Part shown: positions 17,549 to 61,849 of the stretch, in pieces | Layout: each line of letters opens with the position of its first letter | Position numbering within the stretch: position 1 is the first letter of the stretch | Source: a virus | Lineage: Duplodnaviria > Caudoviricetes | Strand: one strand, 5' to 3' | DNA length: 64,000 bases | IMG/VR virus record: IMGVR_UViG_3300021431_000075 | Span: 224,001-288,000 of that record | Translations under genes and position numbers: made by a program | The notes under the pieces: generated by a model | Told to the model about the DNA's origin: nothing | Database searches by the model: none | What the model saw: the letters and a program-made list of their open reading frames with translations, nothing else

Positions 17549-17648
17549 AAAAAAGAAAGAATCGCTCAATGAACGACTCTCTCTAATGCGAAAACGCAAC
17601 GGTAAAATTCGTAAAGAATAAACCTTATTGCGAATCACTTGCATACAT
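17549..17648 (-). ncRNA. tracrRNA: tracrRNA of the type II-C system
   Basis: 17627-17648 (ATTGCGAATCACTTGCATACAT) matches the repeat 5' half, so the minus strand is an anti-repeat. It is followed by an AAUAAGG...CCG nexus, a UGCG/CGCA hairpin and a GAGAGAGUCGUUCA-UUGAGCGAUUCUUUC-U6 terminator. Own promoter TACCTTTG (17660-17653) with TTTG 20 nt upstream. Confidence 0.9.
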
Positions 17649-17728
17649 GGTGCAAAGGTAAGCATATTGTTCGGTTCATGCAAATATAATTACAAGAATA
17701 TTTCATTCATTAATAATTTTTAACAAAA

Positions 17729-20700
17729 ATGAAAAAAATCATCGGTCTTGACCTCGGCACGACGACTGTCGGATGGTCTTATCTGAAAGTGCCGGAGAAT
17801 GAAAATGAAACACTGGAAGTCGTCGACTCTGATCCCAGAATCATACCGACAGCGTTGAACAAGACGGAATTCGACGCATACCAGCAAGGAAACGCTGTTA
17901 CGATAAACGCAGACAGACGGAAGTATAGAAGTTCAAGAACTGTCAAGAAAAGATACAAGGAACGCAGGAGAGACCTGACAAACCTGTGCATATCATGCGG
18001 CTTCATAAAAGACAAATCCGAACTCACATCATGCGAGTCTACGAAATTCTTCCAGACACTGAAAGTAAGAGCTGCTGCTGTTACAGAGCAAGTTTCCCTT
18101 CAGGACCTTGCTCGTATTCTTGTCCAGATAAACAAGAAGCGTGGATACAAAAGCAGCAGGAAACTGAACAAGGCTGACACTGAATCGACCGGAAGCGTCG
18201 ATGTTGCCATGAAAATCCGAACCAGCGGGATGACTCCGTCGCAATACACGTACAGCAGGATGCAGTCAGGCAACTTTGCCGTTCCGTCATACTTCAAGTC
18301 GGATTTGGTGAACGAGCTTGATAGAATATGGAACTTCCAGAAAAGGTTCTATCCGGATATTCTGACAGACGAGTTGTGGAAAGAGATGGATGGGAAGAAG
18401 CAGAGGGATACGATTTCAATTTTTAAGAAACATGGCATCATGCAGGACGACTGCAAGGAAGCAAGCGCGAATGAGAAAAAAATGAATATCGCGAAATGGG
18501 GTGTTGATGCCATTAGCGAACAGATTCCGCTATCCAGACTTGCGACAGTCATCGCAGTCCTGAAAGGCAAGATAGGCGCGACAAGCGAGATGCTTGACAC
18601 TCTTGGCGATCACACAATAATCCTCACAATCAACAACTGGTCTATCGGACAGTACTTGATGGACATCGTCAAGAAAAACAGCAATGCGAGAATCAGCAAC
18701 ATCAGGTTCTATAGAAACGACTACGACAATGAGTTCAGCATGATATGGAACAAGCAGGCTGAATTCTATCCGGAACTGACCGATGAGCTAAAGAAGAAGT
18801 TCCATGACATCATATTCTTCCAGAGACCCCGTCCGAGCATGAAGTACCTTGTCAACTACTGCGAGCTTGAGAGCAAAGAAATCGAGGTCGTCAAGAACGG
18901 AAAGAAGATAAAGGTAACTACTGGGAGCAAGGTCTGTCCGAAATCATCGCCGCTGTTCCAAGAATTCAGATTGTGGCAGACGTTGAACAACATACAGGTG
19001 AAGGATACCAAGACGAAAGATTCCAGACGGCTTTCTGTCGATGAGATGAACATCCTTGCATCCGAACTTGAGACCAGAGAGAAACTGGACAAGAGCGAAA
19101 TACTCAAGATTCTGGATATAAACCAGAACGACTTCGATATCAACTACAAGAAGATACCCGGAAACAAGACACAGACCGCGCTGCTCAACGCATACTTATC
19201 CGTAATAGAGTCTATGGGGAACGAACCATTTGATGTTGAAAATGCAAGCGGTTCACAACTGATGGACTATGTCAAGAACTCGTTTGAAAAGAACGGATTC
19301 AACGCAAGCGTCCTACACTTCAACTCCGACACGAACGACATCTCGAAAGACAGCATGTACATGCTATGGCATCTTCTGTATTCATATGCAGGAGACAACT
19401 CCAGACTCGGTTTTGAATCGCTCATCACGAAAGTAAGGGAGATGCTCAACTTAAACAACGATGACCAAGCAAAGGCTGTCGTGGGAGTGATGCTCGAAGA
19501 AGACTACGGAAACCTAAGCGCGAAAGCGATGAAGAAGATTCTTCCGTTCATGAAGAAAGGGCTTGAATACGACAAAGCTTGCGAGCAAGCCGGATACAAT
19601 TTCTCGAAAACATCAATCCGGAAGTCGGAATACAGCAATCAGGTTTTGCTTGAACATCTTGAACTGCTGCGAAAGAACAGTCTCCGCAATCCGATAGCCG
19701 AGAAAATCATCAACCAGATGATCAATGTCGTGAACATGCTGATTGACAAGTACGGAAAGCCGGACGGTTTCTGCGTAGAGCTTGCACGCGAACTGAAGAA
19801 CAGCATAAAGCGCAGAAAGGAAATATACGAACAGAACCAGAAAGCCGAAGAATACAACAACAAAATCAAAGATATTATATCAAAGCCTCCGTTCAACTGC
19901 CCATATCCGTCGGAACAGAAGAACATCGACAGATACAAGTTGTACGAAGAACTTGAGCCGAACGGGTTCCGAACTCTGTACTCAGGAACCCTGATAAAGC
20001 CGGAAGAACTGTTTTCCAATAAGTTCAATAGGGAGCATATCATCCCACAGGCAAGGACGACAGACAACAGCCTGTCCAACTTGACACTTGAACTTGAGAC
20101 ATCAAACAGCGACAAAAGCAGCATGACTGCATATGACTATGTCCGGTCAATCGGCAAGACAGAAGAGTATGAGCAAAACGTGAAACGGATATTCGAGAAC
20201 TATTCTCCGGCATTGCTTAAGAAGCGCGGGCTTCCTGAAAACTACGGAAAGACGAAGGCGAAGAACCTCATGACAACATCAGAAGAGATACCGTCCGGAT
20301 TCATCGAGAGAGACCTCAAGCTCACCCAGTTCATCACGAAGAAATGCGCGGAGATTCTTCAGCAACTTGTCGGCATAGAGAACGTAAGGTTCACGACAGG
20401 ACAGGTGACGTCGCAGCTTCGGGAAGACTGGGGTCTCAACGATATGATGAAGGAACTGAACATGGAAAGGCTTGAGGCTTCCGGAAACGTGTATGAAGTG
20501 ACATACGCGAACGGGAACACAGTGAAGAAAGTGAACAACTTCACGAAGCGCAACGATCACCGGAACCATGCCCTTGATGCAATCATCATTGCATGCACTA
20601 CACAAGAGCATATCGTATACATGAACAACAAGAGTTCAAAAGGCAAGAAGAACGGGCAGATATACAAAATCATCAAAACGAAAATGCATAGGGATGGCGA

Positions 20701-22066
20701 GGGAAAACTGCGGTTCAACCCTCCGGTTCCATATGATGTTTTCCATTCCGTTGTCAAGAACGCGATGGAGAATATGATTGTATCCCACAACAAGAAACTG
20801 TCTCCAGTGACTACCGGCAAGAGCGTATCCAAAGACGGAACCGTTACAAAGAACGTAGTTCCGCGCGGTCCGCTCCATGACGACACGTTGTACGGTCAAA
20901 GAACCGTGAACTCGATAAGGTATGTCATGGTCTCTGAAGGCAAGGACGGTTTGTCAAACAGCATCATCGACTGTATAGCGAACCAGTCATACAGAGACGC
21001 AGTCAAGCAAAGGCTTGCGGATTACTCTACGTTGAAGAAGGCGTTCGGAAAAGACAACAACGTCATCGACAATCCGATATGGCTGGACAAGATTCACTCT
21101 GCAAAAGTTCCGCCGTTCGTGAAGATAGTCGAGACAGAAAAGATATTCACCATCAGAAAGAAGCTGGATAAAAAGGATATGTTCAAACTGCACACGTTCA
21201 AAATCAACGGCACTGAACTGGTAGAAGGCAAAAGCAAGAAACACATCAGCGACGCGTTCTGTGAGCCATATGCGAGCCATATCAAGTGCTTGATGCTATC
21301 AGGAACATGCAAGACTCTCAAATGCGCCATAGAAAGAAGCGGAGCCGACTTCATCCACTGGATAGACGAAGACACGTTCATATCATTCAAGTCCGTAAGA
21401 GAACTTGTTATTGACAAGGCATGCGCGGATGCAATCATCAGAAGGATTGTAGATAGCAAATGTGACTTGAAAGCAGCATTCGAGAACATAGACAATAATC
21501 CGATATGGATTGATGACAAGCACACGAGATTCGTAAGCAGAGTGACTATGAAAGCATTCATCACAGACAACAGCTCTGTTCAAATACGGAACGGAAAAAC
21601 CAGCGTGAAAACGAACAACAACCATACTGCCGCTTTGTATATGAAACCGAACGGAACTGTAGAGATGGTCGTGGTATCTTTCTTTGATTCTGTCAACAAG
21701 TCCGTGTGCAGGAAGCCTGTCATAGACAAGGAGTTCAACAAGGAACTCGGATGGAAGTTCATCATGTCATTCGTGAAGAACGATATACTCATTCTCAAGA
21801 ATGACGAGACCGGATTCGACCCGAAAAAGATAGACTTGACCGACAGAAGCAACAACTCTTTGATTGCTCCGAATGCATATAGAGTCCAGAAGTTTTCGGA
21901 TGACATGTGCATGCTAAGGCATATCAATGATACTACAACCGAAATCGGTCCTGCTGGAAACTTCAAGTCATTATACGGAAAGAAAAATCTGAGGATTTTA
22001 GCAGATGCGGTGAAAGTCAAGGTCGATAGCATCGGACACATTTGTTTAGAAACTGATTGCATGTAA
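17729..22066 (+). CDS. cas9: Type II-C CRISPR-associated endonuclease Cas9 (Bacteroidota-like)
   Basis: RuvC-I GLDLGT, Arg-rich bridge helix RRKYRSSRTVKKRYKERR, RuvC-II VELAREL, HNH EHIIPQA...N...N, RuvC-III HRNHALDA. 1445 aa with adjacent tracrRNA and array. Confidence 0.97.
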   Translation: MKKIIGLDLGTTTVGWSYLKVPENENETLEVVDSDPRIIPTALNKTEFDAYQQGNAVTINADRRKYRSSRTVKKRYKERRRDLTNLCISCGFIKDKSELTSCESTKFFQTLKVRAAAVTEQVSLQDLARILVQINKKRGYKSSRKLNKADTESTGSVDVAMKIRTSGMTPSQYTYSRMQSGNFAVPSYFKSDLVNELDRIWNFQKRFYPDILTDELWKEMDGKKQRDTISIFKKHGIMQDDCKEASANEKKMNIAKWGVDAISEQIPLSRLATVIAVLKGKIGATSEMLDTLGDHTIILTINNWSIGQYLMDIVKKNSNARISNIRFYRNDYDNEFSMIWNKQAEFYPELTDELKKKFHDIIFFQRPRPSMKYLVNYCELESKEIEVVKNGKKIKVTTGSKVCPKSSPLFQEFRLWQTLNNIQVKDTKTKDSRRLSVDEMNILASELETREKLDKSEILKILDINQNDFDINYKKIPGNKTQTALLNAYLSVIESMGNEPFDVENASGSQLMDYVKNSFEKNGFNASVLHFNSDTNDISKDSMYMLWHLLYSYAGDNSRLGFESLITKVREMLNLNNDDQAKAVVGVMLEEDYGNLSAKAMKKILPFMKKGLEYDKACEQAGYNFSKTSIRKSEYSNQVLLEHLELLRKNSLRNPIAEKIINQMINVVNMLIDKYGKPDGFCVELARELKNSIKRRKEIYEQNQKAEEYNNKIKDIISKPPFNCPYPSEQKNIDRYKLYEELEPNGFRTLYSGTLIKPEELFSNKFNREHIIPQARTTDNSLSNLTLELETSNSDKSSMTAYDYVRSIGKTEEYEQNVKRIFENYSPALLKKRGLPENYGKTKAKNLMTTSEEIPSGFIERDLKLTQFITKKCAEILQQLVGIENVRFTTGQVTSQLREDWGLNDMMKELNMERLEASGNVYEVTYANGNTVKKVNNFTKRNDHRNHALDAIIIACTTQEHIVYMNNKSSKGKKNGQIYKIIKTKMHRDGEGKLRFNPPVPYDVFHSVVKNAMENMIVSHNKKLSPVTTGKSVSKDGTVTKNVVPRGPLHDDTLYGQRTVNSIRYVMVSEGKDGLSNSIIDCIANQSYRDAVKQRLADYSTLKKAFGKDNNVIDNPIWLDKIHSAKVPPFVKIVETEKIFTIRKKLDKKDMFKLHTFKINGTELVEGKSKKHISDAFCEPYASHIKCLMLSGTCKTLKCAIERSGADFIHWIDEDTFISFKSVRELVIDKACADAIIRRIVDSKCDLKAAFENIDNNPIWIDDKHTRFVSRVTMKAFITDNSSVQIRNGKTSVKTNNNHTAALYMKPNGTVEMVVVSFFDSVNKSVCRKPVIDKEFNKELGWKFIMSFVKNDILILKNDETGFDPKKIDLTDRSNNSLIAPNAYRVQKFSDDMCMLRHINDTTTEIGPAGNFKSLYGKKNLRILADAVKVKVDSIGHICLETDCM

Positions 22067-22109
22067 ATATCAAAATACGGAAGATACAAAATCAATTTCT
22101 ACTTTGTGT

Positions 22110-22715
22110 GTTGCGAACCGCTTGCATATATACATTAAACATCAAAGGATGTCATTCAGGCTGTTGCGAACCGCTTGCATACATACACATTAAACACATA
22201 AGTTCACATGGCGAAGAATACAACTTTTGTTGTGAACCGCTTCCATACATACACATTAAACACCAGCCGAGTATGAGAGGATCCTGATTATGTTGTGATT
22301 TGCTTGCATACATACACATTAAACACCCACTAACGTGCTCTCTTGCACTATGCAGTTGTGATTCACATGCATACATACACATTAAACACCGGCATCGTTC
22401 TTCACTTTTATACACGTTGTGTTTCACTTGCATACAGATACATAAAACACCAGCGGAGAAACTTTCCTCATCAAGTTCTACGTTGTGTTTCACTTGCATA
22501 CAGATACATAAAACACCTTAATGCATCTTGGAGCAAAATAAACTCGAGTTGTGTTTCACTTGCATACAGATACATAAAACACCTTCATCCGGGTCTGTAG
22601 TCGTAGCCCAATTGTTGTGTTTCACTTGCATACAGATACATAAAACACCATAGCCTTGTTCCTGAAAATGCGCTGCAAGGTTGTGTTTCGCTTGCATACA
22701 GATACATAAAACACC
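22110..22715 (+). CRISPR. CRISPR array, 10 repeats (36 nt, GTTGTGTTTCACTTGCATACAGATACATAAAACACC) and 9 spacers
   Basis: Repeats start at 22110, 22163, 22229, 22292, 22355, 22416, 22482, 22548, 22614 and 22680. Spacers are ~19, 30, 27, 27, 25, 30, 30, 30, 30 nt. Orientation taken from tracrRNA complementarity. Confidence 0.97.
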
Positions 22716-50374: not shown

Positions 50375-51721
50375 TTAGGCGAAATCCTTCAGAACTTCCG
50401 GGCTTGCTGACCTGATTTCATCCAGCAGTTCCTTCCTGCTTGCGAGAGGGTTCCTGTACGCGATGCCAAGGGCGTACCTGAGCCACTGTCCGACTTCCGG
50501 GCATCTTCCGATGCTCCTGACTTCCATGACATCGTCTCCGCTCACCGGGAGCCTGTACCCGAACATGGATGTCCCGTTCCTGAAATCTTCATCGCATTCC
50601 CTGATGATTTCGCTGACAGCCAGCTCGTCCGGCAATATGTTCCTTGTCGTTGCAAGAGCGACCTCGCACAACGCGAGCCACAGTTCCCTGCCGAGCCGGA
50701 ACTGCATTCTGTGCAGGGACGCGCTGTCCGTGATGAGCATGAAGTCCGGATATGCATCCATCAGCCGCGCGACCATGTCCATCGTGAACTTCGGAAACTT
50801 CAGATTGTCAAGGACGCGCCTCGCGTTCTCCGGACTCGTGCGGCCGGTGAACAATGTCGCAAGAGCCACGTGTTCCGGAACGGAACTGTTGCTGTTCTCG
50901 TCAAACACCTCGTATCTTTCTGCAAGGACCTGCTGCTCCTTGATGATGTCATCCCACTGCCCGTCCTGTATGTCAAGTCCCCTGAACACGTACGGAAAGA
51001 CCCCGTACTCGTTGAGCATCTTCAATGCGGTCGCGAAGTCGATTCTTATCATCTTGCACAGTTCGTCATGGACGCGCTCCCTCGACACGATGTCCAGTCG
51101 GAACGCGTTCTTCCTCATTCCGTCTGCTGTCTCCTTCGATATGGTCCAGTGTCCGGCATCCGGAATCCTGTTCAGCCTGCAGAAGAACCTTATGCACCTG
51201 AGGATTCTCAACGGGTCGTCGTCATATACGATATCCGCGTCGGAAGGAGTCCTGAGAATGCACATTCTGCTGTCCGGAATCCCGAGACCGGACGGATCGT
51301 GGACGGAGCCGTCGGATACCGAGTAGTACAGGGCGTTGATGGTCAGGTCCCTCCTCATGCAGTCATCCTCTATGGTTCCGAACGACGTGGACGGCTTCCT
51401 TGACGTCCTGTCATACTTCTCCTTTCTTGTCTGCACGCTCTCGATCTCGATTTCCGGATGCGACGAGAGCCTGAACATCGCTGTTCCGTATGCCGGATAC
51501 GTGACCACGCTCATCGCAAGCAGCCCGTTGTTCTCAAGCCACTCAGCAAAGCGGATTCCGCCGTCGTTGAGATTGACCACCAAGTCGATGTCCTTGATTT
51601 CCTGCTCCATCATCAGGTCCCTTACAGCCCCGCCCACGCAGAATACATGGTTCTCAAACTCTGTTCCGCTGATGATGTCCCTAATCCGGTTCATCAGATT
51701 GTAAAATTGATACTCGTTCAT
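50375..51721 (-). CDS. cca: tRNA nucleotidyltransferase (CCA-adding enzyme)/poly(A) polymerase family
   Basis: VGGAVRD, KDIDL, DDCMRRDLTINA, DDPLRILR, VSRERVHDEL. Confidence 0.9.
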   Translation of the reverse strand: MNEYQFYNLMNRIRDIISGTEFENHVFCVGGAVRDLMMEQEIKDIDLVVNLNDGGIRFAEWLENNGLLAMSVVTYPAYGTAMFRLSSHPEIEIESVQTRKEKYDRTSRKPSTSFGTIEDDCMRRDLTINALYYSVSDGSVHDPSGLGIPDSRMCILRTPSDADIVYDDDPLRILRCIRFFCRLNRIPDAGHWTISKETADGMRKNAFRLDIVSRERVHDELCKMIRIDFATALKMLNEYGVFPYVFRGLDIQDGQWDDIIKEQQVLAERYEVFDENSNSSVPEHVALATLFTGRTSPENARRVLDNLKFPKFTMDMVARLMDAYPDFMLITDSASLHRMQFRLGRELWLALCEVALATTRNILPDELAVSEIIRECDEDFRNGTSMFGYRLPVSGDDVMEVRSIGRCPEVGQWLRYALGIAYRNPLASRKELLDEIRSASPEVLKDFA

Positions 51722-54007: not shown

Positions 54008-54535
54008 TTAGTTTCCTTTTTCATAGACGAGAATGACATTCTTCGGTTCCATAATCTCGCAGTCATTATCCTCGTTGTCGTTCCCTGTATATATCATGGA
54101 ATCTCCGCAGAACAGGAAGTTCATCAGCATCACCTCGTCGTTCCTGATTCGTGACAGGAAAGGCTTTAACCTATCGCTGTGGTCGATTGAGCCTGTTTCA
54201 AGCCAAGTTCCATATCTTGCCATCCTCGGGGTCTCGAATTCGCACTCGATGTTCCACTTCGCAAGAGTGCTCCTTATGTACTCGACGAAGTCCTGTATAA
54301 TCGCCTTGTTCTCCTCGTTTTGTTCCCAGTACACGTTATAGATTCCGGTGTACAGGTAGGAAGCCTTGCTGTGAGTATCGTCGTACACGTCGAACTCCCA
54401 GCCGAACTCGCCGAACGTGAAATCAACCTTGCTCGGAAGATGGTTCATGAAATCGTCCGAGTTGTTTCCTATCACCAGCGTGTGGACGGAACTGCTGTTC
54501 GTCTCGAACACGCCCTTTCTAATAGTCATTGCCAT
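54008..54535 (-). CDS. Conserved phage protein (IR.GVFETNSSS family), radical-SAM partner
   Basis: N-terminal IRKGVFETNSSSVHTL and IDH motif. Overlaps the radical SAM gene. Confidence 0.7.
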   Translation of the reverse strand: MAMTIRKGVFETNSSSVHTLVIGNNSDDFMNHLPSKVDFTFGEFGWEFDVYDDTHSKASYLYTGIYNVYWEQNEENKAIIQDFVEYIRSTLAKWNIECEFETPRMARYGTWLETGSIDHSDRLKPFLSRIRNDEVMLMNFLFCGDSMIYTGNDNEDNDCEIMEPKNVILVYEKGN

Positions 54536-55449
54536 AGTCTTATCCTTTTGTTTTTTCTGTAGTGCTTAAGTCTCTGTATGACCTTGAACATCTCGTCTAT
54601 GCTCCGGTCCCTGATATCGAACCTGCGGCTCGCTATGCTGTTCCGGGCGAACTTTCCGTTCACCAAGTCGATGTAGAACGTGAAGTCGCCGTCGTCTCCC
54701 ATGTACAGCCGGTTCCATTCGTCATCGCTGACGATGTCCCTTATCCTGAGCTGCTCAAGCGCGAGGTTGTCGAAGCATATGCACCTGAACTGCCCGAGCA
54801 TTTCCGGAATCATCCCGCGCAGAGCCAGACTGTTTCTCTCGATGTTCTCTTTATTGATGCCGGCGAACCGCTCTCCGCGACCGGTCTCCTTGAACCCGAG
54901 GACCAGCAGGCTGATGCCGTATCCTGACAGCTTCCCTATGTCATCCGGGGTGACGATGCCGTTGATGACATGCATGACACCGCTCCGCACGGAGAGGAAC
55001 CGGTCGATGAAGTCTTGGTCGAACTTATTGAACGAGACTCCGACTCCGTGGATGAGACCTGCCGACCTGTAGTCCGAAATAGCAATGAAGTTGTCCATGA
55101 ACTGCTGCTGGCTGACAGTGATGTTGCAAATCACCTTCTGCGCTGCAAGCCTTGCCAAGAACGTGTCGAGCTGGGGATGGTCCAAGTCGTTGCCGTTGAT
55201 TGCCATCTCCGTATACGGATGAAGATGGTCGATGAACCGGAACGAGTCCAAGTCCGCGTGCCTGCCGTCCGGTCTGCAGTCCTCGTAGCAGAACGGACAT
55301 CCGACGGAGCATCTCTCGGTTATCTTCACATCGACGTTCTCCGCGAACGCAGCCGCCGGGCTGTCGCATGACCACTGCCGAATCTTGGTCCCGTCATCCG
55401 GGCTTATCGCGACTTCGTAGTCGCCGTTCTTATAGAATACCATGTCCAT
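54526..55449 (-). CDS. Radical SAM protein
   Basis: CSVGCPFC CxxxCxxC motif. Confidence 0.9.
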   Translation of the reverse strand: MDMVFYKNGDYEVAISPDDGTKIRQWSCDSPAAAFAENVDVKITERCSVGCPFCYEDCRPDGRHADLDSFRFIDHLHPYTEMAINGNDLDHPQLDTFLARLAAQKVICNITVSQQQFMDNFIAISDYRSAGLIHGVGVSFNKFDQDFIDRFLSVRSGVMHVINGIVTPDDIGKLSGYGISLLVLGFKETGRGERFAGINKENIERNSLALRGMIPEMLGQFRCICFDNLALEQLRIRDIVSDDEWNRLYMGDDGDFTFYIDLVNGKFARNSIASRRFDIRDRSIDEMFKVIQRLKHYRKNKRIRLWQ

Positions 55450-55463
55450 TCAGTGAAAGCGGA

Positions 55464-55739
55464 TTAGATGTTGCAGAACCAGTACGCCCCGAAAACCGTG
55501 CATACGATGACCACGATGTCGAACACGAGGCTTTTCCGCAGTTCGCTCATCGGATCCGAACTCGGTGCGAAATCGTTGATTAGCTTGCAGAACTCCATGA
55601 CCTGCTCCTTCTCATCGGCAGGAGCCGAAGTTATCTTCCACATATGCCTTATGTGCTTGCATGCTTGGAATCCGAACACGCAGACGACAGACACTGCGGC
55701 AATTACCACACAGATTGAAATAAAGTCGTTATAATTCAT
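55464..55739 (-). CDS. Small two-TM membrane protein
   Basis: Two hydrophobic segments. TATATTTG promoter at 55762-55769. Confidence 0.55.
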   Translation of the reverse strand: MNYNDFISICVVIAAVSVVCVFGFQACKHIRHMWKITSAPADEKEQVMEFCKLINDFAPSSDPMSELRKSLVFDIVVIVCTVFGAYWFCNI

Positions 55740-55850
55740 AAATCAGATGTTTTTGGGTTTGCAAATATAGATGTTTTGAACCGGTCTGGCAAGAGTTTCT
55801 TGGAAAAATCTTCAGTTTGTAACATTCTTTAACAATTTCTTGTCATAACT

Positions 55851-56261
55851 GGAAAAACAAAAGCAACTGATTCTCTCGAACCAGTTGCTTTTGTTGTTTA
55901 GCATAGTGTTTTACGTCAGAGGATTTCACTAAACATAAAATTCCATACTAATGTGACGCTCCCAGTCCTAAAGGACATGGGCTTCGCGGTTCAACCTTCG
56001 ATGGTCTCGACAAAGAACATTGCATTCCATGAAGCCTTCACCAAAGTCCCCGCGCGTGAATTCGGACTCGTCCGGTCCTACTGCATAGAGAATTAAAAAC
56101 TCTCTATATTATATATCCGATTCACATAACGAACTTAAAAGTTTGCATCTTTCTTGGATAACATTTGGAAAACAAAGCAACTGATTCTCTCGAACCAGTT
56201 GTCTTTGTTGTTTAGCATAGTGTCTCACGCCAGAGAATCTCACTAAACCTAATATTCCATA
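55851..56261. repeat. Duplicated ~95-nt structured module with terminator hairpin (55851-55947 and 56167-56261)
   Basis: Near-identical GCAACTGATTCTCTCGAACCAGTTG hairpin plus a GTTTAGCATAGTG...CACTAAAC stem in both copies. Confidence 0.8.
55953..56107 (-). mobile_element. IS200/IS605-type right-end/omega-RNA-like remnant without tnpA/tnpB
   Basis: Minus strand reads GTAGGACCGGACGAGTCCGAATTCACGCGCGGGGA...TTGAACCGCGAAGCCCATGTCCTTTAGGACTGGGAGCGTCAC, with the subterminal hairpin and TCAC end typical of TnpB-associated right ends. Confidence 0.6.
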
Positions 56262-56334
56262 ATGTAATAACACCTAAATAGGATAATTTGGGGGAAAATA
56301 ATCTAAGCTATTAATTTAAAAATTGAAAAACATC

Positions 56335-56755
56335 GCTTGAAAATAGACCCGACCGCGCTGGAACCTGCGAGCCTGTGTTTGACGACTGGGGCTACGCGCA
56401 GTCATCCAGAAGCGGTCGTTATTGGTCTAATGTTCGGAGTTTCCTGATATGGATTCTCCGGGAGGGAGTGTAATAGAGAAAACCGGCGGTGTGTATTTAG
56501 ATGACGGGCATCTATCTTTCCTGATTATGTTAAAATAGGAACACAGGCGGTCTTGCTGGTGCAGGTTGTCTATCAAGAATCCAAAAAAAGACTGAATGAG
56601 TCATTGGAGTTGGGGGGTTGGACTACGCATGATGCTGAACTATGAATCTCAACGCGTTCACAGCCTGAGTCTTGTTCTGCTTGATGTCATGCAAGACAGA
56701 CACTCGATGCCCGAAGCCCAGCACCTGCTCACCGCTCTCTATGCCGGTTTTGTGA
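56335..56755 (-). ncRNA. Candidate large structured non-coding RNA of unknown class
   Basis: Promoter TATCTTTG 56765-56758 with TTTG 19 nt upstream. The 5' end pairs long-range (56743-56751 with 56479-56487). Many nested stems and a C(UUCG)G loop. No credible ORF. Confidence 0.6.
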
Positions 56756-56953
56756 TGCAAAGATATGCATTATCTTCGGAACTGCAAAATATTTTCATAA
56801 CTTTTTTCAAAAAATTTTCATTTCGGTTCCGCATATGCATATAATGCATATGATTTTTTCATATTTCCGGAGTCTTGTTCAAACCATTTGGTTGTCCAAG
56901 ATAAATATCTCACGCGTAGTCACAATACGCGGACCAAATTAAAACTCAGAGCT

Positions 56954-57298
56954 ATGATTGAATCATTAGTAGCAACTTATTTCGCGACCATCGGCGGCGT
57001 CGCTGCCCTCAACGTCATCGTCACAGAGTTCATCAACAACGCTGTCGGCGCAAAGGGATGGGTCAAGCAGGTCATCTCGTGGGCTTGTCCGCTTCTCATC
57101 TCCGTTATCGGTCTCGTGTTCGGATGGGGCATCTTCGCAGGCTATGGAACCGTCGGATCGTTCACCGCATGGATCTACACAATCCTCACTGGTCTCGGAA
57201 CCGGTCTCGTTTCCAACGGTCTCTATGACATCAAGTATGTCCAGAACGCAATCGCGTTCATCAAAGAGCTGTTCACCCAGACCCATATCAACAAGTAG
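56954..57298 (+). CDS. Holin-like membrane protein
   Basis: Three TM segments and GLGTGLVSNGLYDI motif. ATAAATA at 56901-56907. Confidence 0.65.
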   Translation: MIESLVATYFATIGGVAALNVIVTEFINNAVGAKGWVKQVISWACPLLISVIGLVFGWGIFAGYGTVGSFTAWIYTILTGLGTGLVSNGLYDIKYVQNAIAFIKELFTQTHINK

Positions 57299-59298: not shown

Positions 59299-59365
59299 AT
59301 TTATGAATTATTTTCCGGTTCCGCAACATAATCAGGATTTAAAATCAACGAATTTAATGTAACTT

Positions 59366-60847
59366 TCATGTAACATTATTTTGTGCCAAGTTATTCTTTT
59401 TGAAAGAAATCTTCTTGGCATAAATCCTGTTAGACAAAAGTTTGGAGACAACTGTCTGACAATCAGACAGAGAGACGCGATACATCATTTTCGAGTCTGC
59501 TTTTAGAGCATAATAGATTTTCCTCAGGTCTATTTCAGAGTCCTTCAAGTTAAATACTTCCATCGTTCGCTCTATCTGTTCTCTGAAGTCATCAACGTTC
59601 GGAAACAATATGTTCTTTGTTTGTTTGAAATCTTTAACTTTATACTGGTGATAATATTCGTAAGTCCTACGTCCTATTTCGATTGATGCAAGGCACATGT
59701 CTGCATAACCGCAATCCCTAAATATGAAGTTGCCTACGAAACTGCTGTACTCGCACATCACTTCCAAGCACTCTATGTCATATTCAGCACAGTTCTTTCT
59801 TATGTTGTCAATCAAAGGTCTGCGGAGCCACTGGTTGTTTATAAGCCTGTTGAAGTTCGTTCCTTTCTTGTTGTCCTTTGTTACGATTGCAAGTTGCTCG
59901 TAGCCGAACAGAGAGCAACCGTAGTGAACTGCTATGCTTATTAAAGTTTTGGATATGAGAAATATCTCGTTGTGACGCTCGTTCTTTATCTTCTTTCTCT
60001 TTCTATGACTGCTTGGAAGATGCTGTCCTTTCAGTGCATTTTCTGCGTCATTAAGGTCCTTGATTGTAATAGTATTTGATTCTACTATATGGAAGTCGCT
60101 GTGTGACTTCCAGTCAACGACGCTCCATCCGACATAGTTGGGGTTCAGGTCTATCGCAAGAACCCTGTCTTGAATCTGCTTCGGTCTATTAACTATCTTG
60201 ACGTTCTTGTACAGTTTTTCAACAGAATAAGTTATATAAACAAATTCAGAGTCAATCTTGTAAGTGATTGGCATGTCACCCACAAGCTGATGCTCATAGA
60301 GCAGTCTTATAATCTTGAGATAATTCTTTGACAACCTTGCAGAGAACTTGACTTGTGTCCATTTCTTTCCCGGCATTAGTATTCTAATGCCGCTCAAGTC
60401 GTCAAGCAATCTGAACTTCCTGTTTCCATATAGTCTTGTTGAACCTGAGTCTGCCGTTCCTATACTGACGAGCGGAGAGAGCCTGCCGGCTCTCAATTCT
60501 TCCTTCGAAATCTTTCCGCTTCTATAGTCATTCATCAAAGACTTGCCGCCGAAGCAAGTTCGTATCTTCTTCTCACTTAACTTCTGCTGCTCTTTCTCGG
60601 TTTCGTATATTGCATTGCCTTCTTTTATTGCAGAATTCTTCAGCCAAGAGTCAAGCAAGTCTATGTCATTGTAGTTGTCAAACGAATTGAACTTTACAGG
60701 AAGTTCTTTCTCGTATTTCTTGAAAGCGGATCGTATGATGTGCGTCTGCTGTCTCTGCAAATCAGAAATCAACATACGGTCTTCGGTTGAACTGTATTCA
60801 ACCGGAATCTTTATCGTGCTGTATGTATCTTTCTGATTTTTAGACAT
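59366..60847 (-). CDS. tnpB: TnpB-related RuvC nuclease (IS200/IS605 accessory-protein-like), stand-alone
   Basis: RuvC-I LAIDLNP, RuvC-II YEQL, YSSFVGN, RuvC-III ADMCLASIEIGRR. No CxxC zinc finger, no adjacent tnpA, AT-rich. Confidence 0.7.
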   Translation of the reverse strand: MSKNQKDTYSTIKIPVEYSSTEDRMLISDLQRQQTHIIRSAFKKYEKELPVKFNSFDNYNDIDLLDSWLKNSAIKEGNAIYETEKEQQKLSEKKIRTCFGGKSLMNDYRSGKISKEELRAGRLSPLVSIGTADSGSTRLYGNRKFRLLDDLSGIRILMPGKKWTQVKFSARLSKNYLKIIRLLYEHQLVGDMPITYKIDSEFVYITYSVEKLYKNVKIVNRPKQIQDRVLAIDLNPNYVGWSVVDWKSHSDFHIVESNTITIKDLNDAENALKGQHLPSSHRKRKKIKNERHNEIFLISKTLISIAVHYGCSLFGYEQLAIVTKDNKKGTNFNRLINNQWLRRPLIDNIRKNCAEYDIECLEVMCEYSSFVGNFIFRDCGYADMCLASIEIGRRTYEYYHQYKVKDFKQTKNILFPNVDDFREQIERTMEVFNLKDSEIDLRKIYYALKADSKMMYRVSLSDCQTVVSKLLSNRIYAKKISFKKNNLAQNNVT

Positions 60848-61849
60848 TTTATGATACTTGTTATGACATAGTATATATCTTTAAAATATTTCATTATAAA
60901 GAATCTTTATCTTTGCATTGTGATATGAATTTATTAAAAACTGATACTATGTTTATATTTTATAATATAAAGAATAAAAAATAATTTATGAATTATAACA
61001 TTTCGGCAGAATGCATGCCGGCGACGAGAGCATGAGTCCTAATGATCGTTAAGCGGTTTACCATGCTCTGTCCATGCATAAATAAATGGTCAAACATCTG
61101 AACATCTAATATATGGAAAACATCAGATCCAGGCAGGCTGACAGGGAGACCGAGCAGTGGATTCGCAATCTTGTCCACTTGACTGTGGAACATTTCCGGG
61201 ACTCGTCTCTGCGTGAACGAAACCGGATTCACATCAGGAAGCACAGGCTTCCGTTCATGCGCCGCTGATTTCCATCATCCGGTTTTCCGGAAAAAAAGCA
61301 GCGAAAGTTTTCCGGATTCTTTTCCAGACTTTCCGGAACAGTTCGTTCAGCAGAGTGAATGCGTTTTCCTGGATCGCAAAAATCTGCTGAAGGATTCGCA
61401 GGATCGAAACGATGTTCCATGGTTTCTGACCGGAAAACATATTCGGTTTCACTCGTCATCCGGTCAGGAATCCGCGGTTCCTTTCATTATGTGTAAGGAT
61501 TCTTTAACATTTGGTTTCCGGATAAAACCTAACAATTCCTAATGCCTGCCGTATACGCGCGAGAGATGTTCTGAACGGTTTTTTCATGAGTGCGGATTCA
61601 CCCGCGGTTCCTTTGCTCCCGCAGTCAAAGAATCCGGTTTCCGGGACCGCAGTTCCATATATTCCGGACCGGAAACGAAAATACAAGTTTTCACAAAACG
61701 GCAGGAAATCCGTAGATTTCCGGCTCATCACTTCTGTACGGTTCCGTAGTTTTGGGACGGAAAACAAAAATACAAGTTTTCATGAAACGGTCCGGAATCC
61801 GTACATTTTCATAGCTCTCTTATTTTTTCAGGAGCTTGTTGAAACGCCG

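Follow-up and report, generated by a model that had tools for sequence, protein, structure and literature searches.

A conserved, lineage-restricted candidate non-coding RNA gene in a clade of megaphages

Megaphages hold hundreds of kilobases of unexplained sequence, and their non-coding RNAs are, to our knowledge, almost unexplored. Several described systems offer points of comparison for the locus considered here. GOLLD and ROOL are stand-alone phage or prophage ncRNA genes of several hundred nucleotides, with a conserved core and a variable periphery, whose function was not known when they were first described. The omega-RNA (reRNA) of TnpB is a structured RNA placed at the 3' end of tnpB and the right end of the element, which occurs together with its nuclease and carries a scaffold followed by a locus-specific 3' guide. 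Type II tracrRNAs are recognizable by an anti-repeat. HK022 put, EAR, and riboswitch leaders place a structured RNA at the start of transcription, followed by terminators and same-strand genes. The candidate described here, RNA A, has something of each. It resembles GOLLD and ROOL in its stand-alone layout, size class, and split between core and periphery; like an omega-RNA, it is predicted to be structured, sits in a genome with a TnpB-type nuclease, and has an orphan omega-RNA 100 nt downstream with which a 3' module is held in common. Likewise, it has the promoter type (TTTGCA..N..TAnnTTTGCA) of the Cas9 tracrRNA of its own phage and would, like that RNA, be a small independent unit with a putative intrinsic terminator at its end, and its layout of structured RNA, terminators, and same-strand genes is that of the leaders. 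On the sequence evidence presented below, the tract is a real, conserved, lineage-restricted ncRNA locus and represents a new orphan family, with no match to a described one and with modest fold evidence; that RNA A is a real RNA gene we consider likely.

The window, by which we mean the whole 64,000-nt stretch of DNA analysed, comprises bases 224001-288000 of a 673,114-bp source record with direct terminal repeats (GC ~50%). It holds a 1,445-aa Cas9, a CRISPR array, one tRNA, and many family-less genes. The hosts of the phage clade are probably Bacteroidota and its habitat probably the rumen; the sample names of related contigs, SHIW14 and STEW19, suggest rumen metagenomes, as far as names alone can.

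A preliminary description of this DNA reported a consensus host-type promoter upstream of an ORF-free tract, and the promoter stands. A perfect TTTG-N19-TAnnTTTG lies on the minus strand at 56788-56758 and matches, as sequence, the elements of the Bacteroidota housekeeping sigma factor (-33 TTTG and -7 TAnnTTTG, ~19 nt apart). Motifs of the TTTG-N19-TATCTTTG type are enriched 12-fold in the window (5 found, 0.4 expected), and none of 100 shuffles reached at least five. Genome-wide there are 39 copies, ~30 of them with an ATG-started ORF of at least 60 aa beginning 5-75 nt downstream; copies also precede two tRNAs and the Cas9 tracrRNA. Because it precedes ORFs, tRNAs, and the tracrRNA across the genome, the motif very probably marks a working promoter class in this phage, and the copy at RNA A is among the very few of the 39 without an ORF behind it. 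Read off the -7 box, transcription is predicted to start at A56753-A56751 and to end in the U-run after domain 2 (Table 1). The "early" timing proposed in the preliminary description is an inference from the host-type promoter only.

The promoter region has features of its own. A perfect palindrome, CATATGCATATAATGCATATG, occupies 56832-56852, between the divergent promoters of RNA A and a membrane-protein gene, and a further copy, ATGCATAT (56760-56775), overlaps the RNA A -7 box. Because the palindrome is kept in the homologous locus L011 as CATATGCATATTATGCATATG, it resembles an operator.

Table 1. Features of the RNA A locus and of the neighbouring nuclease cassette (window coordinates).
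Feature	Position	Strand	Remarks
Bacteroidota-type promoter: -33 TTTG, 19-nt spacer, -7 TATCTTTG	56758..56788	-	kept in 5/5 homologues
RNA A, predicted primary transcript, ~415-420 nt	56340..56753	-	MFE -128.2 kcal/mol; both ends predicted
5' core: 5' strands of P1 and P2, invariant GGGCAUCGAG	56697..56752	-	identity 100% L017, 100% L019, 96% L013, 79% short forms
Variable peripheral insert of domain 1, 131 nt, three or four hairpins	56566..56696	-	absent in L011, L018
3' core: 3' strands of P3, P2, and P1; UCCUAUU/AAUCAGGA hairpin; invariant AGAUGCCCGUCAU	56472..56565	-	identity 100% L017, 87% L019, 98% L013, 70% short forms
Small CGGAG/CUCCG hairpin between domain 1 and terminator	56435..56460	-	not kept in short forms
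Domain 2: 86-nt imperfect hairpin (56429-56344), then UUUU	56340..56429	-	z -3.98
AT-rich spacer	56262..56339	-	96-97% identical in L017/L019, 76% in L013; would be transcribed only upon read-through of first terminator
3' module copy 1: hairpin and strong intrinsic terminator	56169..56261	-	scan match 56201-56178; z -6.49
493-aa nuclease cassette, discrete 1,635-nt insertion	59358-60992	-	in window and L017; absent in L019, L011, L018

The absence of coding potential, also part of the preliminary description, was borne out. The tract has no ORF of at least 90 aa (the longest, on the plus strand, has 82 aa), no frame is opened across it by recoding stops (TAG=Q, TGA=W, TAA=Q), and no ORF on either strand is common to all homologues of RNA A. 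The 82-aa plus-strand ORF was considered as a gene and rejected: L017 does not have it, and where the short forms depart from it the changes are, by eye, almost all non-synonymous. Searching the ORFs of the tract against PHROGs returned nothing at or below the default cut-off (best E 0.011).

Nor does the RNA fit a family that has been described. An Infernal scan against Rfam, the check that the preliminary description had proposed, gave no gathering-score match for RNA A in the window, nothing relevant at E<=10 on 55700-57000, and nothing relevant at E<=5 for the short form of L011; ARAGORN found no tRNA or tmRNA in the tract. Judged by the Rfam models and ARAGORN, RNA A is thus not an RNase P RNA, tmRNA, 6S or SRP RNA, group I or II intron, riboswitch, or self-cleaving ribozyme, in keeping with the reported lack of RNase P, tmRNA, intron, or riboswitch hallmarks. 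The models for HEARO (RF02033, the IscB/IsrB omega-RNA), GOLLD, ROOL, OLE, raiA, and the other large ncRNAs of Rfam were likewise unmatched. Paralogues were sought in the 673-kb genome with blastn and nhmmer profiles, which returned the locus itself only. There was no blastn match among INPHARED phage records and no match to two core patterns among GTDB species genomes, pattern scans of IMG/VR gave chance matches only, and a literature search for such an RNA found nothing. A second ORF-less unit does exist in the genome, outside the window (108600-108840, minus strand), where nearly the same promoter (GCATTATCTTTGCATCAG) is followed by ~215 non-coding nt and then tRNA-Met; no sequence similarity to RNA A was seen in it beyond CCGGCAT.

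Relatives of RNA A come from within its own clade. A search for relatives of the flanking proteins, together with a single pattern scan of metagenomes, led to five homologous loci on metagenome contigs: three long forms (L017, L019, and L013, respectively 95%, 90%, and 86% identical over RNA A) and two short forms (L011 and L018). Gene order is shared by all five: a methylase gene and, on the opposite strand, a gene for a small membrane protein come first, and after an ORF-free gap follow genes for an 84-91-aa protein, a radical-SAM-like protein, and a 175-aa protein. All five also retain the promoter, a split core of ~150 nt, and a putative terminator made of a hairpin and U-run. Three more syntenic contigs (samples ERZ1029110, ERZ1756109, and ERZ1029116), compared by layout, have the matching gene order with a 730-760-nt gap. 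L005, which has a radical-SAM relative of 43% identity, was rejected as a homologous locus, being ORF-dense and without the RNA. The comparison thus covers six sequences from four or five lineages of one megaphage clade, the relatives being uncultivated. Among the neighbours, the 307-aa protein downstream (54526-55449, minus strand) is probably a radical-SAM enzyme: its sequence includes CSVGCPFC, a CxxxCxxC motif, and phrog_16999, annotated "Fe-S oxidoreductase", is a match at E 1.7e-34. The 175-aa partner is conserved along with it, as is, further on, an enzyme of the CCA-adding/poly(A) polymerase family (50375-51721).

Within RNA A, conservation is concentrated in the two halves of the core. 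Difference from the window at fourfold-degenerate sites of the neighbouring genes, taken as background, is 3-9% for L017, 16-20% for L019, 14-20% for L013, and 47-52% for L011 and L018. The 5' core differs by 0%, 0%, and 4% in L017, L019, and L013 and by 21% in the short forms, and the 3' core by 0%, 13%, 2%, and 30%. For the 5' core of L019 this means 0 changes at 56 positions where ~17% would be expected, a result with a probability of ~3e-5 (binomial estimate). The core is therefore under purifying selection, since its changes are far below the background at neighbouring fourfold sites. The central insert, by comparison of the same sequences, is dispensable: the three long forms have it with indels and at 92%, 82%, and 68% identity (a difference of 8-32%), and the short forms lack it. 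An ORF-free tract with promoter and putative terminator kept in five syntenic homologues, a selected core, and no Rfam match agrees with the novel ncRNA of no recognized class that had been put forward.

The fold of the predicted RNA is a more mixed matter. The minus-strand 421-nt RNA as a whole has a z of -3.68 and its plus-strand counterpart one of -1.71 (dinucleotide shuffles), and 24 random 421-nt windows of this genome have a mean z of -1.3 (sd 1.5), with 3 of the 24 at -3.58 or lower, so that RNA A lies within the top ~10% of such windows and not beyond them. Taken by itself, the multibranch domain 1 (278 nt) has a z of -1.49, and 14 of 200 shuffles fold equally well, while domain 2 by itself reaches -3.98. 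Thermodynamics hence backs the long 3' hairpin and not the multibranch domain. The earlier label "highly structured" survives only partly: substitutions do spare the stems, but most of the z of the RNA as a whole comes from domain 2.

Individual helices named in the preliminary description can be followed more closely. The pairing of the first transcribed bases with 56479-56487 is there, AAAACCGGC (56751-56743) being complementary to 56487-56479, and GCGGT/ACCGC, GAGT/ACTC, TAGATG/CATCTA, TCCT/AGGA, CGGAG/CTCCG, and all the domain-2 helices are present in the MFE fold. The ~270-nt multibranch domain that they were said to form thus has nearly all of its named helices in the MFE, but as a domain it does no better than shuffles. 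GCAGGT/ACCTGC has a rival pairing in GGUGC/GCACC, and the short forms preserve neither of the two. The C-UUCG-G loop is less secure than described: the MFE does not contain it, and homologues differ at its third base (UUCG, UUUG, UUAG).

Predicted stems are spared by substitutions. Of the columns that are paired in the MFE of the window 16% vary, and of those left unpaired 34.5% (Fisher p 1.5e-5). In the long forms, the 16 paired columns of the CGGAG/CUCCG segment never vary, and 5 of the 29 unpaired do. A covariation check among the homologues, as had been advised, yielded two compensatory pairs: a P2 pair that goes from G-C to U-A in the two short forms, and a domain-2 pair that in L017 goes from C-G to U-A. 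These are few, and six sequences from four or five lineages give covariation little power. Four pairs are changed on both sides, a number reached in 11 of 500 shuffles, and most stem pairs are invariant across the six sequences. By eye, L013 swaps a CUUG/CAAG hairpin for a UAU/AUA hairpin, and a C-to-U change in L018 makes a G·U pair on the transcribed strand only. P3 is not retained in the short forms. The invariant segments GGGCAUCGAG and AGAUGCCCGUCAU contain perfectly complementary 7-mers, GGGCAUC and GAUGCCC, which are paired in the MFE of L011, L018, and L019; in the long forms this pairing would cross P2 and could therefore be a pseudoknot or an alternative fold.

Domain 2 is best read as the putative intrinsic terminator of RNA A rather than as a second functional domain. 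The helices of the "second nested domain" first reported are in the MFE, but the hairpin is replaced in the short forms. In the window a GC-rich stem base (GACCCGACCGC/GCGGUCGGGUC) leads into AUUUU, and in the short forms its place is taken by a hairpin of ~70 nt that is not related to it (GCCUGCCGGAU/AUCCGGCAGGC, then UUUUGUUU; z -4.29). The hairpin is far longer than those of usual terminators, and a simple terminator scan does not call it. Beyond it, the sequence UUUCAAG..AUGU is conserved, and no promoter motif was seen by eye in the AT-rich spacer. The terminator of the 3' module, 170 nt further on, has a stem kept in the short forms with altered sequence; it could act as a back-up, giving a read-through form of ~585 nt. 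After this second terminator, the 91-aa gene has a promoter of its own (TTGCCA-N17-TATATTTGCAAAC, 55792-55764), an arrangement found also in L011, and a 314-nt insertion with another strong terminator is tolerated between RNA A and the 91-aa gene in this complete genome. Because RNA A would have its own terminators and the downstream gene its own promoter, we read it as an independent transcription unit of ~420 nt.

The stretch just past RNA A has a history of its own. A mini-IS of 221 nt (55948-56168, minus strand) is an IS200/IS605 deletion derivative that joins the left end to the omega-RNA scaffold, the final ~130 nt of the right end. The genome has a complete tnpA/tnpB copy at 132847-134879 (Y1_Tnp 74 bits; Cas12f1-like TNB domain 35 bits), to which the mini-IS is 90% identical. 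Copies of a 93-nt hairpin-plus-terminator module flank the mini-IS as a direct duplication (55855-55947 and 56169-56261). The duplication and the mini-IS are evidently recent and outside the design of RNA A, because L017, L019, and L013 lack the mini-IS and have the module only once. The right end of the mini-IS abuts ATTAGTATGG...; TTAC precedes this sequence in the other module copy and in the relatives (AAAC in L013). One possible origin of the arrangement is recombination between two lineages in which the IS flanked the module on opposite sides.

How, then, might this locus be read otherwise? Its order of promoter, conserved structured core, two terminators, and same-strand genes, together with the synteny kept in all homologues, would suit a cis-acting leader controlling read-through into the operon of the 91-aa, radical-SAM, and CCA-adding-enzyme genes, whether as an attenuator (riboswitch-like or dependent on a protein) or as a put- or EAR-like processive antiterminator. 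The separate promoter of the 91-aa gene in the window and in L011, the ~600 nt between RNA A and that ORF, the tolerated terminator insertion, and the lack of a match to any Rfam riboswitch or leader family make this unlikely. Somewhat less probable still is a base-pairing antisense sRNA acting, whole or processed, on phage or host mRNAs. In its favour, RNA A has its own promoter and putative terminator, and two C-rich stretches that are conserved and single-stranded (CCAACCCCCCAAC within the insert, UUUUCCCCCAAA within the spacer), but there is no complementarity of at least 16 nt in the 673-kb phage genome, and matches of 13-15 nt are few enough for chance (31 at 13 nt, overlaps included, against ~12 estimated for independent windows). 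At 420 nt RNA A would also be long for a regulator of this kind, and its best-conserved parts lie in predicted helices. To about the same low degree we credit the reading that there is no functional RNA at all, with the tract being conserved intergenic DNA (such as regulator sites around divergent promoters) or what is left of a decayed gene or mobile element, so that a transcript, if made, would be incidental. The unexceptional thermodynamics of domain 1, the ATGCAT palindromes near the promoter, which hint at DNA-binding sites, and the sparse covariation are all compatible with it; however, conservation reaches 280 nt past the start site in two mutually complementary blocks, the terminator has had its sequence exchanged without losing its structure, folding is stronger on the transcribed strand, and substitutions avoid stems. 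As for a gene remnant, no frame has protein-like conservation, and the plus-strand ORF is lost in L017.

The preliminary description also entertained a nuclease guide scaffold, which in present terms would make RNA A an omega-RNA- or tracr-like partner of the 493-aa protein encoded 2.6 kb upstream on the same strand, or of another RNA-guided nuclease of the phage. Its remark that this neighbour is TnpB-like proved apt: the protein has no match in Pfam, PHROGs, or NCBIfam, and its predicted fold is Cas12f/TnpB/Cas12k-like (Foldseek E 6.6e-11, pLDDT 87). An orphan TnpB omega-RNA directly downstream, with the common 3' module, adds to the appeal of the idea. Against it, the nuclease cassette is missing from L019, L011, and L018, which retain RNA A, and no copy of RNA A lies within 6 kb of the nuclease homologues of 85-89% found in three other contexts on related megaphage contigs (L006-L010). 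The position is not that of an omega-RNA, with two genes between RNA A and the nuclease gene, and the true IS right end of the genome (132847-132973) matches the neighbouring mini-IS only and not RNA A. The cassette ends 8-13 nt past its stop codon, as would be expected if its own guide RNA were encoded in cis. The 5' end of RNA A is invariant, and at its 3' end a putative terminator hairpin and U-run are followed by the conserved UUUCAAG..AUGU, which leaves no variable guide segment. The common 3' module stems from the recent duplication around the mini-IS, an event that L017, L019, and L013 do not show. Neither, on reading the sequence, does RNA A contain an anti-repeat to the phage CRISPR repeat, and the tracrRNA lies elsewhere. 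With a nuclease insertion separable from RNA A, and no variable guide end on RNA A itself, the evidence disfavours a guide scaffold, and we regard this reading as very improbable.

Both nuclease systems merit description in their own right. The conserved block of the nuclease cassette runs from ~145 nt before the ATG to 8-13 nt after the stop. The 493-aa family is large, with 1,653 matches at E<=0.001 and an Atlas cluster of ~8,000 members, mostly viral and partly labelled SSO2105_N. The type II system of the phage consists of the 1,445-aa Cas9 (17729-22066, plus strand) and a CRISPR array (22100-22715, plus strand) of ~ten 35-nt repeats in two variants. The repeat reads GTTGTGTTTCACTTGCATAC..., and its complement GTATGCAAGTGA is found at ~17640, beside cas9. 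A divergent unit at 17560-17684 (minus strand) holds a candidate tracrRNA (~17560-17652), with a consensus TTTG-N20-TACCTTTG promoter, then the anti-repeat GTATGCAAGTGATTCGCAA, and a terminator at its end.

The explanation that we favour, although we give it only about even weight, is that RNA A is a stand-alone ncRNA gene of a small megaphage clade, which the host polymerase transcribes and whose product acts in trans through a folded, protein-binding core. Host RNA polymerase would start at the consensus -33/-7 promoter, transcribe ~420 nt, and stop at the long GC-rich hairpin and U-run of domain 2, with the second strong terminator as back-up. The functional part would be the ~150-nt core, in two halves separated by the 131-nt insert and joined by the 9-bp helix P1 (AAAACCGGC/GCCGGUUUU) and by helix P2, with GGGCAUC and GAUGCCC available for a pseudoknot or an alternative pairing. 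RNA A would then act as a protein-binding RNA and not as a guide or antisense RNA; this part of the mechanism, as scaffold or decoy, is put forward tentatively and is doubtful when taken alone. A bolder version, in which the split core folds as a compact pseudoknot (P1, P2, and GGGCAUC/GAUGCCC crossing P2) and represents a new megaphage-specific class of catalytic, ligand-binding, or protein-binding RNA, for example a subunit of an early phage ribonucleoprotein, seems to us improbable.

Whatever its mode of action, RNA A offers a clean case of a megaphage RNA gene, with a promoter, a terminator, signs of selection, and no described family, in a genome that also encodes Cas9 with its tracrRNA, TnpB with its omega-RNA, and a mobile nuclease of Cas12f-like type. 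Should it prove to be expressed, it would give a workable handle on RNA-based host takeover or anti-defence in phages of Bacteroidota.

Set beside the described systems, RNA A keeps its distance from each. It is shorter than GOLLD and ROOL and has no match to an Rfam model at E<=10; its support comes from six sequences of one clade, with far weaker covariation. Unlike an omega-RNA, it overlaps neither a nuclease gene nor a right end, has no variable guide, does not resemble the IS right end of its own genome, and is conserved without the nuclease cassette. The tracrRNA of the same phage has an anti-repeat and adjoins cas9, whereas RNA A has none and lies 34 kb away. In contrast to put, EAR, and riboswitch leaders, to none of whose families it matches, RNA A is several times larger, tolerates an extra terminator insertion on its downstream side, and is followed by a gene with its own promoter.
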